Assembly (NCBI GenBank): GCA_964016885.1
Contig: OZ024751.1
Span: 22,010,001 to 22,074,000, forward strand
DNA from: Eledone cirrhosa
Taxonomy: Eukaryota
DNA length: 64,000 bases
Direction: 5' to 3'
Part shown: positions 385 to 63,981 of the stretch, one piece after another
Layout: each line of letters begins with the position of its first letter
Numbering within the stretch: position 1 is the first letter of the stretch
Made by a program: the position numbers and the translations under genes
Notes under the pieces: model-generated
The model's database searches: none
What the model saw: the letters and a program-made list of their open reading frames with translations, nothing else
What the model was told of the DNA's origin: nothing

Positions 385-568
385 CGTTATTCCGGGTTGA
401 ATCGGAGGTAACCACAGTAAGTAAGGTACTCAATACATAGCAGAGTATAAAAGTTTTAATATAGATGAGATTCTACAGGACTAGAACTGTTTCATTCTTT
501 TCATTCCTGATGATTTCTAAAGAATGAAACAGTTCTAGTCCTGTAGAATCTCATCTATATTAAAACTT
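385..568. mobile_element. Fold-back PLE-like terminal fragment in (TA)n with HHR-like core
   Basis: 50-bp arms 451-500 and 519-568 are reverse complements. CTGATGA at 507-513, GAAAC at 526-530. Unpaired tail 385-450 reads ATTGAGTAC on the minus strand. (TA)n on both sides. A related sequence lies on the minus strand at ~62135-62180. Confidence 0.65.
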
Positions 569-2138
569 ATATATATATATATATATACATACACACACAC
601 ACACACATAATCATTTACACACACACACACACACACACACACACACACACACACACACACACACACACACACACACACACACACACACACACACACACAC
701 ACACACACACACAGACACACACACACACATGTATGTGTAAGGTGGACTATAGGCATAGATATCATGTCGGTGCAATACCTTCCTTCTTTCTATGCTTTGA
801 TTTCAAATCCCGCCTGGTTAACGTAACCCTTAATCAATCTGAAATCAATAAATATATACCAAAACACTATTGTGATCAATTCTTCTCATCTGTCTCTTTG
901 TCATTCTTTGCCTCTTCGGAAGAAACCGGTTGTGAACAGATTGGGAGGTGAATGTTCACAACAGGCTGTGTATCATACTGGTAACCCTTCGGTTCCATTG
1001 AGAATTAAGGGCTCAACGATGGAATATAAATCTACTACTACTACTATTACTACTACTACACGCGCACACACACACACACACACACGTGTGTGTGTGTGAG
1101 CCTGTCCATCTGTGTGTTTGTATGTATGTATTGAAAGAATATCGCATTAGAAACAACGTGGTTTAATCGGACTAAGATATACACACGCACACACATATAC
1201 ACACACATACACGCACGCACGCGCACACACACACACACACCACACATACACACACATATATATATATACGCACACGCACACGCACGCGCACACACACACA
1301 CACACACACACACACACACACACACACACACACACACATTTCGTACAACCTCTTCGTTTATCATTTTCGTTCTTTTCGAAACAAGATTTTCACCATAGAT
1401 GCCAGAATTAATAAAATAATAATGTCTGCCAGTATTTACTGAACAGCCTGGAGGAATCTTAGAAATGAGATTTCTGTGTTGGGAGGATTCCTCATAAACT
1501 TATTCAACCGTCTACTTATCGAGTTTTATTTAGTCAACGGATATTCACTGTTTCTCTTATGTAATAAATTAATAAAAAAAACTGTTTTACTATTACCTGA
1601 ATCGTTATTTCATTTTTCCGGATATTCACTGTTCAACGAGTTGTCGAATTTACAAATAATCAGTTCTGTACATTGGATATATATTCCGATGAAAAAAAAA
1701 AAAAATCTCTAACGTAAAATAAAAAAAAAACGAGAAAATAAAAATAAAATAGGAATAAAAATAACAACTCTACAAATGGCCCCTACTTCGAATGCACACA
1801 CACACACACACACACACACACACACACACACACACACACACACACACACACATACACGCACACCTTCCATATATATTCCCTTATATAAAAATATAATACA
1901 AAGTAATGTTTTTCTTACCCAGTATATTTCAACATAATATTTCGGGGTTAACATCCACTTTTCAAATGCAAAAAAAAAAGATGCAAAATAGATGTGAAAC
2001 ATACTGTGTAAGAAAGACGTTATTTTGTTTTGTTATATTTGTCATCCTTTGTCGTTTATATATTTCTACTGCATTATACCGGCTTTCAGAAATACTTGAT
2101 CTTTTATTATATATCTTACAATGCTCCATATTAACTAC

Positions 2139-2381
2139 AGAGTACAATGCACTAAGAAGGACTAATATTTTTTGTAGCTTTTGTCTTTCTAAATTGAAGG
2201 GTATGTTTTTTTTTGTTTTTTTTTAAAATGAAAAAACGAGTCAGTTACCGGTTGCTCTCCGACAGGCTTGCGGCCATGTCCTTGGCATTGGAGACTTCTG
2301 GTATCTTTGGCCCTTGGGCTACCTCCCTACTCACCACCACCACCATAGGTGCTGAGCTGGCCAGCCGCAGGTGTGAGCCTC
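2139..2381 (+). repeat. Dispersed repeat, inverted partner of 4557-4806
   Basis: agagtacaatgcactaagaaggactaata...gagtcagttaccggttgctctccgacagg...gctgagctggccagccgcaggtgtgagcctc is the diverged reverse complement of 4557-4806. Confidence 0.75.
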
Positions 2382-3239
2382 GCGAGATTGAATGGCTCCC
2401 CCCCCCCCAATATATACACACTTTTATTAGAATACTGTTGAAGTCTGTATACAATTTTGGGGTCACTCTATATTAAGTTATTTATTTCATAATCAAGATG
2501 ATATTTGTAATACCACATAATAAAAAAGGTTCTTATATCAGTTTATCTCGGAAGATTTTAATATAAATAGGAACCCTTTAAAATGGGTAGTTTTATATAA
2601 TAAAAGCAGAAGCAGTTTTAGGCAGGGTTCTAAGAACAAAAACATTGTGGCTAAGGGGGCTGAAATTCTTTCCTTTGTTAAGTTATTTATAAATTTGTTG
2701 TTGATATTTTTGTTCAATCAGTTAAATTTATAGACGGTAGAAGTTTATTTGGCTGTTATTTCTAGTATATTGAGAAATCATGTAGAGGTTACTTGATATA
2801 ATAAGAGGAATAACAGATTGTGGGCAGCAATTATTTAATGTACACGAACAAAGTCTGGTTGGACTATCACGATTTATTTACTGTTTTATCTAATTATATA
2901 TATTTTTATTGGTTGCAGTCATTAGACTGCGGCCATGCTACGGCTTTAACTTGATTTATTCGATCATATTGAATCCAGTAAATATTTTTCAAACCAGGCC
3001 CTTGATTTTTTGTTTTTTTTCTACCGAACAGCTAATGTGTTACATTTGTTTACATTTTATAATATATCTTAATTTGTTTATTTATTTATTTATTATTTTC
3101 CTTTACTTCAGTAATGCCTTTCCTAAATTGATTAATTAATTTATTTATTCTATATTGTGAGTTCCAATAAAATAAAGAAATTAAAACTGTATGAGCAAGA
3201 TCCGATTGAGTGCGCATACTACAGTCTAATGACTAAATC

Positions 3240-3418
3240 CAGTTAAAGAATGCGAGAGACCCGCCTCTTTATGTTCTGATTTCGAATCCTGCTGAGGTTA
3301 GCTTCGTTTTTTATCATTTTGGGTTCGATAAAAGAAAGCCCCAGTAAAACACTGAGGTCGATTAAATCGACTTCCCTCCCCCAAAATTGTTGGCCTTGTG
3401 CCTAAATCAGAAACCATT
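3240..3418 (+). mobile_element. Nin/Deu-domain tRNA-derived SINE (diverged)
   Basis: B-box-like ttcgaatcc, then ttttatcattttgggttcgataaaa core and gtcgattaaatcgac...ggccttgtgcctaaa tail. Confidence 0.7.
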
Positions 3419-3555
3419 GCACACACACACGCGCACGCACACACACGCACGCATACACATACACACACACACACACACACACATATATAACAAATAGTTT
3501 TATCGCTCTACAATGGCTGAATACAAGAAATGTAAATCTGAGTTTTTCTAATAAT

Positions 3556-3743
3556 TGTTTCTACCTTTTTGGCACAAGGCCACCAAATTACCCAGTGCAT
3601 TACTGGTACTTTATTTTATCGACCCCGTAAGGATGAAAGGCCAAGTTAACCCCGGCGGTATTTGAACTCAGAATGGCAAGGGCCGTAACTCTATGCGTCA
3701 AAGCATGGTGTCCGACCCTCTACCGATACTGCCAATCCACCGC
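3556..3743 (-). mobile_element. Full-length tRNA-derived SINE with 16-bp TSD
   Basis: Minus strand shows A-box tggcagtatcgg, B-box gagttcaaatac and core cctttcatccttacggggtcgataaaataaagtaccag. Flanked by direct repeat gagtttttctaataat at 3540-3555 and 3744-3759. Confidence 0.9.
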
Positions 3744-61717: not shown

Positions 61718-62000
61718 CTTACTGGTTCCTATTACCCACTCTACTACCTCAAGTATTGAGTACTTTGGTGCGTTATGGTCCACCTGGTTCCTTACCACAT
61801 TTCCTTCGTTATATATATATATATATATAGAGAGAGAGAGAGATAGATAAAAGGTGAAATTAGAAACAGCACGGAAAAAAACATTTAAGGATCTGTTTTT
61901 CCCTCTTTCTTCTTTGATTCGTCAAAGTAACATTATTGAATAAATGAGAGGAACAATTCTTAAAAAAAAAAGAGTTCTATAATGTATATAAGGTATATAA

Positions 62001-62048
62001 AATATAACCGGTTTCGATGTATCAATATGGATCATCTTATCAAATGTT
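62001..62048 (-). ncRNA. Minimal hammerhead with UUGAUAA (U3-A8) core
   Basis: Minus strand: aacat TTGATAA gatg...catc GAAA ccgg TT atatt. Confidence 0.65.
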
Positions 62049-63346
62049 GAATGTAATAATTAAAAAGAATAAACAATTTAAAATTAAAATTAAAAGTATT
62101 GAAACGGTCTGTTCATTTTTCTGAGAAACGACTTCTACAGGAATAGAACTGGTTCATTTTTTTGAAATCATCAGGCTACTAATGATTTTGACGTCTTAAT
62201 TACTAATTAATTATGTTAATTAGTATTTTCCCTTGTCAAATGAAACAGTATGGTATAACCAAATATTTGAAGTTAAAATTATACTTTTCTTTTAAAATGT
62301 ATTTTTGCTTGCAATGTTTACTTTTAATATACTAATTGCACCTTAATATAATTTGCATAAATGAAGCTCTACTAATATAGTTTTTAGTCTGTAATTGTAT
62401 TGCGCTATTTTTTAAGATGTAATATGATTGAAATAATATATATATATATATATATATATATAGTTATTGTGTTTGTGTCTATATTATATCTGTATTTTTG
62501 ACCGTTGGTCAGTCAATGGTAAACATTGTGGATCGAATAAATTAACTGATATAAAAGATACAGAAGCGAAAACCAACCAAACAGTGAGTGTGTTCTGTTA
62601 TTAATTCTGGCAATATTATTACAACAATATGACCCTCCCCAAGTATATATATATATATATATATATATATATATATATATATATATATATATACCAACTA
62701 CAAAAACAAAGACGGTTGAACTGCCTTACGTTGAGTACTCTCTATATTATTGCATTACGATTGACCATACGGAATAGACCAGCTCTATACAGTGGTAAAC
62801 CTCAAACCTGAATAAATATATATATATATATATATTTCGTTTCTGAATTTGTTTAGCAAGATTCTTTATCTGAAAACGTGTGTTGAAACCGATATTGTTA
62901 TACTTTGGGAGGGTCTTATTGGCAACATGACCCTCCCAAAGTATAAATATATATATATATATATAAACATATAGACATATATCTAGCTATCTATCTGTCT
63001 ATCTATATGTATATATATATATATATACACACATACATATGTAGAAACATATAGACTATATATATATAGTCTATATGTTTCTACATATGTATGTATATAT
63101 ATATATATATATATATACACACACACACATATATATAGTCTATATGTTTCTATATATGTATATATATATATATATATATATATATATATATATATATATA
63201 TATATATATATATATATATATATATATACGTATATATATATAATTTCGTTGACAAGTATATCAATGTGCCCAAACAGGCAGATATATTGCCCATGATATG
63301 ATATATATATATATATATATATATATATATATATATATATATATAT

Positions 63347-63502
63347 AACGAAGGAAATGTGGTAAGGAACCAGGTGGACCATAACGCACCAAAGTACTCA
63401 ATACTTAGGGTAGTAGAGTGGGTAATAGGAACAAGTAAGACCCCGACGGCTGAGCTCAAGCCGTTTCGACGGCTAATTCTGGACCAATTCTTACTTGTTC
63501 CT
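63347..63502 (-). mobile_element. Short family-A copy with 15-bp inverted arm
   Basis: Reverse complement of 61672-61810 plus tcttacttgttcct fold-back. (TA)n flanks. Confidence 0.85.
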
Positions 63503-63540
63503 ATATATATATATATATATATATATATATATATATATAT

Positions 63541-63981
63541 GGAAAGTTATATTTAAAATTGTTGGGTTACAACTAGTAAATATTTATAACTGATATAAAA
63601 GCACTCGACAAATATTTGGAGTATATTTACAATATTAAATAAATGGAAACTATATTTATAAAACCATATCTATTTCATTATATATATTTCGGGGATATCA
63701 TATTAACAATATGTTATGCCTTCCTCAGACAAAATACAATATAAACAGTTTTATAGATAAATAGATTCGACATACCGTTATAACACCGACTTGCATTTGA
63801 AGAGAACCTCTTCAAATGCAAGTCGGTGTTATAACGGTATGTCGAATCTATTTATCTATAAAACTGTTTATATTGTATTTTGTCTGAGGAAGGCATAACA
63901 TATTGTTAATATGATATCCCCGAAATATATATAATGAAATAGATATGGTTTTATAAATATAGTTTCCATTTATTTAATATT
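63541..63981 (-). mobile_element. Fold-back PLE-like element with ~174-bp perfect arms
   Basis: 63631-63804 is the reverse complement of 63808-63981 (loop aac). HHR: ttttgt CTGAGGA(63884) ...catatt-gtt-aatatg... GAAA(63922) tatata TA atgaaa. Minus-strand tail 63541-63630 has TCGAGTGC. Confidence 0.85.

Follow-up and report, generated by a model that had tools for sequence, protein, structure and literature searches.

Penelope-like elements (PLEs) are known to insert as head-to-head copies that carry a tail on one side only (passages of PMC8557442, PMC3846280 and PMC4209133). How they choose their RNA, and why a one-sided tail accompanies the inverted copy, has been an open question since these elements were first described. 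In the Hydra clade, passages of Craig et al. (PMC8557442) describe (TA)n targets, a type I hammerhead near the 3' end, truncated head-to-head copies with the one-sided tail, and an endonuclease ending in N..E..CxH. For the Anolis Poseidon element PAc, passages of Frangieh et al. 2024 (PMC11167929) report that the reverse transcriptase (RT) starts internally, on unprocessed RNA and inside an AC-rich stem-loop, at two sites that bracket the tail. This is the only in vitro PLE system that we found, and it defines start sites but no conserved recognition element. Here we analysed 64,000 nucleotides of Eledone cirrhosa DNA (contig OZ024751.1, positions 22,010,001 to 22,074,000; hereafter the window), AT-rich animal DNA dense in microsatellites, in which the octamer YYGAGTRC recurs in the tails of truncated PLEs. 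We found that this octamer is no single-stranded signal: it makes up the 3' strand of a hairpin with a bulge, RCUC-(variable inner stem-loop)-YY-GAGY-RCY.

In truncated fold-back PLEs that have inserted in (TA)n, the hairpin is found where the tail starts, and it consists of ACTC, an inner stem-loop of free sequence, a mostly pyrimidine bulge of 2 nt, and GAGT. It was complete in nine window families that share no sequence (F1, A, F3, F4, F5, F6, F7, F12 and F16k). Seven of the nine carry ACTC/GAGT, F12 and F16k carry the compensatory form GCTC/GAGC, and a second copy of F4 shows a compensatory change within the family, to ATTC/GAAT. A preliminary description of this DNA had taken the motif to be unpaired and the surrounding tails to have no other similarity; both views had to be abandoned, since at nine of the 11 exact octamers GAGT pairs with an ACTC upstream of it, the two enclosing an inner stem, the other two octamers (46594 and 62731) being 3' halves only. 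All 11 exact sites were present, that given as 54594 lying at 54595-54602, and so were the five variants, four of them shifted by one base (20279-86, 44022-29, 24876-83 and 41073-80). The variants at 20280, 24877, 41074 and 39968 gave no hairpin by descriptor or model, GAGT being changed or absent in two copies of the 39968 family, while the one at 44023 overlaps a weak candidate hairpin on the minus strand (44006-44025) with the named octamer in the wrong register. Five hairpins had gone unnoticed: 63396-63419 and 16064-16089 (minus), 38126-38171 and 45494-45539 (plus), and 56676-56695 (minus).

A descriptor requiring an inner stem of at least 3 bp matched the window 11 times, against 0.73±0.83 in shuffles, and 10 times with a VC tail added, against 0.07; one of the 11 matches (7563-7619, minus) is distant from any tract and looks like background. 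A relaxed form limited to 20-100 nt before tracts gave 14 matches, all in tails. As this descriptor was post hoc, being derived from window sequences, it was tested outside the window. Single-sequence folding gives the exact hairpin in only part of the tails, as expected from an outer stem of 4 bp. The octamer itself occurs 15 times, against 5.4±2.4 in 100 local dinucleotide shuffles (maximum 14). Its reported orientation toward (TA)n was borne out, 12 of the 15 lying in sense 20-100 nt upstream of a tract, against 15.6% of non-repeat positions; the binomial p of 6e-8 is inflated, for the 12 sites represent only eight families, one of which supplies four copies and another two. The elements being short, seven of the 15 also have a tract at 20-100 nt on their upstream side. 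Among 256 YY-NNNN-RC controls GAGT ranked first, with 10 of 15 at 25-70 nt (runner-up 6). In family A, across the 16,279 contigs of run X1, five tail sites vary by at least 5%, all of them outside both stems: two in the loop, one in the bulge and compatible with YY, and two flanking. This pattern is weakly consistent with the hairpin, since the whole tail varies little. Rfam gave no match at gathering score among the best 150 of 250 window matches, and none at E<=0.5 in four loci that bear a leader.

Outside the window, one PLE group from several marine animals likewise has the hairpin conserved at its element ends, compensating base changes included. Thirty distinct Hydra-type open reading frame (ORF) ends were retrieved on the basis of protein sequence. 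The hairpin was present in 13 of them, of which the descriptor found 10 and inspection by eye three more (in L187, in L181 and in a cut copy in L182). Another 10 ends break off in a simple repeat ahead of the hairpin and three run off the contig, which leaves it in 13 of the 17 ends not stopped by a repeat or a contig edge. An alignment of 19 non-window hairpins (A2) was prepared from 30 rows of a regular expression that imposed no inner pairing, after dropping three chance matches off element ends, two duplicate registers, and six long, bulged, contig-edge or near-duplicate rows. In A2, 99.2% of cells are paired and all three inner pairs vary on both sides (UA12/CG7; GC6/UA6/AU5/CG1/UG1; CG9/GC5/UA3/AU1), and RNAalifold returned the same fold unprompted. 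In an alignment of 28 rows that includes nine from the window (A1), the inner pairs hold in 27/28, 27/28 and 24/26 rows, against shuffled means of 20.6, 14.3 and 11.4, and the first outer pair is GC in 21 and AU in seven. On the sense strand, G-U pairs outnumber A-C pairs 7 to 1.

A model built from A2 only gave 17 window matches at E<=10, of which the top nine, and 13 in all, are tail hairpins; it misses those at 38784 and 45494. It had no match in 195 kb of control DNA. Its nine matches in five prokaryotic genome bins were all at Hydra-type ends, eight of them training rows, and in the assembly G001 it had 26 matches, 20 of them at 31-44 nt before (TA)n and many of them training rows or their copies.

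Outside loci were obtained with a degenerate coding pattern (17 loci from prokaryotic genome bins, 14 of them Hydra-type and presumably host DNA) and with a protein search of five such bins (29 loci). L148, L150 and L162 were chance bacterial matches and were used as controls. Neither the coding pattern nor the protein query found anything in viral contigs, and a family search of 63 genomes gave no new loci. Scans for the octamer before (TA)6 yielded 31 loci in viral contigs and 116 in metagenome contigs, where 4 of 64 parts were covered; these proved to be background only, with a hairpin at none of 144 YYGAGTRCT sites near (TA)6. A seven-member metagenome repeat with YYGAGTGCT (L035, L046, L060, L077, L105, L126 and L144) was rejected as it has no ACTC partner; in the copies viewed, the TA run is internal to a longer repeat. 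Retroelements of animal type were seen in several prokaryotic bins (L149-L164, P0002), one ORF being deposited as a bacterial hypothetical protein; host contamination is the likely source.

In all four intact 5' leaders (L232, L249, L251 and L247) there are two hairpins, 68, 63, 62 and 68 nt apart, the second of which ends 25, 18, 22 and 19 nt before the AUG, respectively; by eye, the published Hydra-1_Ajap consensus has the same layout. Junctions were placed where some copies stop in (TA)n and others run on; a few copies that diverge earlier by substitutions (offsets 11, 13 and 20) were left aside. Seven window families have tail-less ends 4, 5, 2, 5, 4, 8 and 14 nt ahead of hairpin 1, and five outside families have them at 6, 5, 3, 5 and 6 nt, whereas tailed ends lie 4 nt (one copy) or 5-7 nt (four copies) before hairpin 2 in two families that have both forms. 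At the level of families, the offset is within 2-7 nt in 12 of 14. In family A the tail-less junction is at 61732, 5 nt before the hairpin (loose ends in 75 contigs of run X1 and three of X4). From the offsets at both hairpins it follows that the tail begins about 5 nt ahead of hairpin 1 and runs to the corresponding point, again about 5 nt away, ahead of hairpin 2. The preliminary description had placed the motif relative to the terminal repeat; what is constant is instead the distance between hairpin and junction, the latter about 5 nt 5' of the hairpin. Its proposal of a cis-acting signal for RT recognition or 3' processing is well supported as a class, by the conservation within a clade and the fixed offset to insertion junctions, although not as a linear motif.

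Of the explanations considered, we lean slightly toward one in which the RT would dock at each hairpin and begin internally, immediately 5' of it, a pair of hairpins thus giving rise to the PLE tail; this explanation draws on the sequence data and on the analogy with PAc. A read-through RNA from a tandem array would contain the 3' untranslated region (UTR), the hammerhead, the end of the pseudo-long-terminal-repeat (pLTR), hairpin 1, about 40 nt, hairpin 2 and the AUG, and the ORF protein, a telomerase-like RT, would bind it at each hairpin. The endonuclease would nick (TA)n, releasing a 3' end that would prime on the UA-rich bases immediately upstream of the hairpin occupied by the protein. 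A start ahead of hairpin 1 would leave a tail-less end, and one ahead of hairpin 2 an end whose tail holds hairpin 1; use of both start sites on opposite target strands would generate head-to-head fold-backs with one tailed and one tail-less arm. The more complete form of this proposal, in which the duplicated, clade-wide hairpin is an RT-docking ruler and two RTs prime both strands of the nicked (TA)n about 5 nt upstream, is put forward tentatively, as a possibility that we would not bet on. If it were true, one rule would cover the tail, its one-sided asymmetry and the fold-back insertions, and a portable tag of about 25 nt would set where a telomerase-like RT starts on any RNA placed upstream. 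A small covarying hairpin at a fixed offset to both junctions makes the origin of the PLE tail directly testable; it is a candidate minimal RNA ligand for the closest retroelement relatives of telomerase, and a sequence-independent marker for classifying non-coding PLE fragments.

The same junction offsets would be produced if the hairpin were an RNA-processing signal, at which a host or element nuclease cuts about 5 nt upstream, the resulting 3' ends serving as templates for end-initiated target-primed reverse transcription and the same cut giving the following unit its 5' end. This scheme is in keeping with L247, a solo full-length copy that starts at hairpin 1, and with the sequences resembling a tRNA D-arm among the pattern matches. 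The GCUC..GAGC stem followed by R-C does recall the D-arm and tRNA-like 3'-processing elements, but here the inner region is a covarying stem with a 2-nt bulge and without the conserved bases of a D-loop, no other tRNA arms were seen, and the ACUC/GAGU form is common in the window. Moreover, the main substrate of the Poseidon PLE is unprocessed RNA with internal initiation (passages of PMC11167929), and a cut before hairpin 1 would part the upstream RNA from any docking element; we regard processing as unlikely. Still less probable is an action on DNA, in which the GIY-YIG endonuclease would bind the hairpin in single-stranded DNA or a cruciform, of a cDNA intermediate or of its own locus, and would trim the insert by cutting a set distance away. 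GIY-YIG homing enzymes typically cut at a fixed distance from their binding site. Craig et al. ascribe the tail to endonuclease-mediated resolution (passages of PMC8557442), and the D. virilis Penelope tail is needed for endonuclease recognition of plasmids (cited in passages of PMC11167929). Against duplex recognition speaks the covariation of the inner stem free of sequence, and the sense strand is the one that the G-U pairs point to, first-strand cDNA being antisense.

A role in expression, as an internal promoter or start site or in translational autoregulation near the AUG, would accommodate the place of hairpin 2 shortly before the AUG in the four leaders and the full-length copy that begins at hairpin 1; it would make the offsets a by-product and gives no reason for the distance of about 5 nt that 3' junctions keep to both hairpins in 12 of 14 families, and we hold it to be very improbable. 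That a chance octamer was fitted post hoc near abundant (TA)n is an explanation that the data have largely refuted and that we barely credit: the bare octamer is only about threefold enriched, four of the five variants lack the hairpin and the descriptor came from window sequences, but recovery outside the sample, the empty null sites and control DNA, and the covariation all go against it.

Several observations weigh against the RT-docking proposal or narrow its basis. Genomic junctions would look the same after internal priming, after RNA cleavage and after DNA-level resolution with this offset, and wherever the element itself ends in AT-rich sequence their position is uncertain by a few bases. 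The rule for hairpin 2 comes from two families in one assembly (G001), there is no full-length leader in the window, and the offsets of 8 and 14 nt are outliers. The start of copy L247 coincides with the base of hairpin 1, as would be expected of cleavage and, no less, of a transcription start. Four of the 17 extended Hydra-type ends lack the hairpin (L175, L177 and L191 twice), and two published consensus sequences, Hydra-1_Obim and Hydra-1_Amil, show by eye only degenerate forms. Lastly, the alignment rows include related families, the shuffle counts are not equivalent to probabilities, and the 7 to 1 strand bias is small.

With regard to the elements themselves, the window hairpin families are best read as endonuclease-containing (EN+) PLEs of the Hydra clade. 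They share with it insertion in (TA)n, the type I hammerhead near the 3' end and the truncated head-to-head copies with a one-sided tail, and the hammerheads have a stem III of 3-5 bp. Two coding remnants, at 60429 (CxH) and 44076 (CxxC and CxH), both on the plus strand, end in N..E..CxH. The families described as unrelated are so at the nucleotide level, although by this reading all would belong to one clade. One point narrows the basis of the assignment: coding sequence is kept only in family A and in the 44076 remnant, so that the clade of the other families is deduced from the motif itself and the hammerhead shape. The linker motifs RWK, DKT and CxCx5C are not retained in the window; they occur in hairpin-bearing loci outside it and, of 86 full-length homologues, in 74, 86 and 75, respectively. 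The clade is large, with at least 2,690 protein clusters at E<=1e-30. An assignment to Neptune, our first idea, was dropped in the light of the Hydra definition; the Neptune, Naiad and Poseidon clades have a CCHH-type endonuclease end or the RT at the C-terminus, whereas both window remnants end in LLNKxxE..CxH. Pfam gave no match at useful E-values for the window fragments or for two full proteins. The predicted fold of P0001, the protein of an outside hairpin-bearing element, matches telomerases best, the N-terminal region included (predicted local distance difference test, pLDDT, 91.8; best telomerase match Z 17.7, root-mean-square deviation 4.5, 293 aligned), with the endonuclease part barely covered; a predicted fold shared with telomerase is no proof of function. 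A homodimer prediction of its N-terminal 230 residues, run without an alignment, scored 0.00 and counts neither way.

The tails of the window elements, of about 55-105 nt, differ from the 30-40 bp stated for the Hydra clade (passages of PMC8557442), seven of the nine window families have ACTC/GAGT in place of GCTC/GAGC, and family A has a 3' UTR that alone measures about 1.2 kb; the size given for the clade is less than 3 kb, and no full-length copy is present in the window. Examined by eye, the consensus sequences of Craig et al. (File S7) show the hairpin clearly in Hydra-2_Amil and Hydra-2_Ajap and twice in Hydra-1_Ajap, and with one mismatch in Hydra-1_Crog. The main text of PMC8557442 contains neither "hairpin" nor "stem-loop", and its passages describe no hairpin, duplication or offset rule; word searches of that paper and of PMC3846280, and passages of PMC13282606, were likewise negative for the three. 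Literature listings and abstracts gave no description either, a scope that leaves outside most subscription papers, Repbase reports, figure images and the PAc.gbk file. The elements are of a known kind, and the hairpin is probably an undescribed, clade-conserved cis-element. PAc resembles the present case in that two start sites set the tail and a structured RNA near the unit's 5' end is implicated in binding, but it belongs to another clade, its start sites are inside the ORF and no clade-conserved element has been defined in the passages available, whereas every junction here is followed, after about 5 nt, by a conserved hairpin of its own within the 5' UTR; GAGY-RCY is missing from the RNA sequence of PAc (letters in the text of Fig. 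S1). Small structured RNAs bound by an RT also fix the register of the cDNA elsewhere, as in the template-boundary stem of telomerase, the R2 3' UTR and the bulged epsilon hairpin of hepadnaviruses. Unlike these, the hairpin described here is 3' of the putative start, is present twice and has no Rfam match. A text search of Naiad and Chlamys consensus sequences with eight short words, unsystematic and open to matches hidden by line breaks, gave mostly internal matches; the near-5' cases Naiad_Ptep and Chlamys-9_cRei have GCTC..GAGCACT with at most two inner pairs. The hairpin is absent from two tailed ends with another endonuclease type (L224 and L227) on the same contigs as hairpin-bearing elements. 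These two non-Hydra-endonuclease families share a different tail feature, TATGAAGA..TTGGATGT (L224:10478+, L227:3899-), which suggests that each PLE clade may own its tail signal.

Self-comparison of the window revealed head-to-head fold-backs bounded by (TA)n tracts, in which one of the arms stops in the tract and its partner has an extra tail; seven hairpin-bearing fold-backs have one tailed and one tail-less arm. Type I hammerhead cores are predicted in F1, F3, F5, F6 and F7 and variant cores in F12 and A, while F4, F8 and F16k are too truncated to show one. The F1 hairpin (428..446, minus; ACTC, a 3-bp inner stem, TT, GAGT, then ACC; model E 3.6e-4) sits in the tail of fold-back 452..567, whose tail-less arm ends 4 nt before it and whose predicted core, at 507+, has a 4-bp stem III. 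Fold-back F3 (6692..7132) has predicted cores in both arms (7008+ and 6816-) and a tail-less arm ending 2 nt before its hairpin (7135..7170, plus), which has a long inner stem-loop and a weak model match (E 8.5). In F5 (38592..38778, predicted cores 38711+ and 38656-) the tail-less arm stops 5 nt before the hairpin 38784..38803 (plus), which has a 1-nt bulge, or a G-A mismatch with a CT bulge, and was missed by the model. Fold-back F6 (40463..40899), found by self-comparison, has tail-less arms ending 4 nt before a hairpin with a 6-bp inner stem (40906..40945, plus), and a second copy of this hairpin (54597..54636, minus) was found by descriptor and model. Fold-back F7 (63632..63980) has predicted cores in both arms and a hairpin at 63603..63622 (minus; model E 3.2e-4), 8 nt from the end of the tail-less arm. 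The F12 hairpin is of the GCTC/GAGC form (38126..38171, plus; weak in the model), and a second copy (45494..45539, plus), missed by the model, follows fold-back 45255..45476, with its variant predicted core, at the outlying offset of 14 nt. F4 has a UUCG loop and the best model match (21805..21824, plus; E 8.6e-5), and its ATTC/GAAT copy is at 56676..56695 (minus; E 0.028). F16k (16064..16089, minus; E 0.004) combines GCTC/GAGC with a 7-bp inner stem. For F8 only the 3' strand was found (62731..62738, plus), with no ACTC partner.

Family A forms a large fold-back (59107..61730), 5'-truncated and head-to-head, with the long 3' UTR and a degenerate hammerhead core near 61629. Its ORF end (60429..60539, plus) reads LLNKKDELVTACKH, of the Hydra type, 10 of 14 residues being identical to the L157 protein, and its hairpin is at 61738..61761 (plus), 5 nt after the end of tail-less copies. 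Further copies, detected by both descriptor and model, are at 6543..6566 (minus; TC bulge) and 63396..63419 (minus); at 46594..46601 (plus) only the 3' strand is left, the 5' strand having been lost by an internal deletion. The family A hammerhead (61620-61730, plus) has, besides its degenerate core, a 5-bp stem III with a palindromic loop. The contigs of run X1 pile up on the last ~140 nt of family A, so that most copies appear cut down to that piece. The Hydra-type endonuclease C-terminal remnant at 44076..44246 (plus; CxxC..LLNKRxE..CxH; tblastn E 5.5e-7) is head-to-head with the tail holding the weak candidate at 44006..44025 (GTTC..TT-GGAC-ACT, 35 nt before (TA)n, 10 bits), and no shared sequence links the two.

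No hairpin was found in the 39968 family, fold-back 56878-57179, 23396-/46340+, 20230-20583, 24877 or 41074. The first of these is an abundant (TA)n-flanked hammerhead family with a 2-bp stem III (39288-40031, copies at 23635, 38904, 58994 and 62468), probably of another PLE clade. Fold-back 56878-57179 has a short tail and no hammerhead core, and would appear to be Naiad-like. In the chimeric fold-back 20230-20583 the plus arm has a Hydra-like hammerhead, and the minus arm two ACTC-stem candidates, both decayed. A decayed PLE-type RT fragment with stops and a frameshift (9780-10480, plus; RPIVS, SLDEVSLYTSVP) was also seen, for which a homolog search with 10134-10337 gave no match. Tandem units of 60-110 nt at 34793-35250 (minus) have minimal hammerhead cores with a stem III of 1-2 bp and are retrozyme- or satellite-like. 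At 43084-43690 (minus), a non-long-terminal-repeat element, presumably R4/Dong-like, retains a C-terminal zinc knuckle and a PD..D/E-like endonuclease and is truncated in microsatellites. A very abundant repeat of about 190 nt, resembling a short interspersed nuclear element and presumably of octopod type, occurs at 3549, 7734, 8129, 12778, 15355-15740, 22193 and elsewhere, and two of its copies form a fold-back. At 41702-41830 and 45770-45960 lie short elements that resemble miniature inverted-repeat transposable elements and have CAGTGGAAC-type inverted ends in TA, and tandem satellites occupy 17410-18186 (26-nt units), 25123-26135 (~14/56-nt) and 26302-26778 (25-nt).

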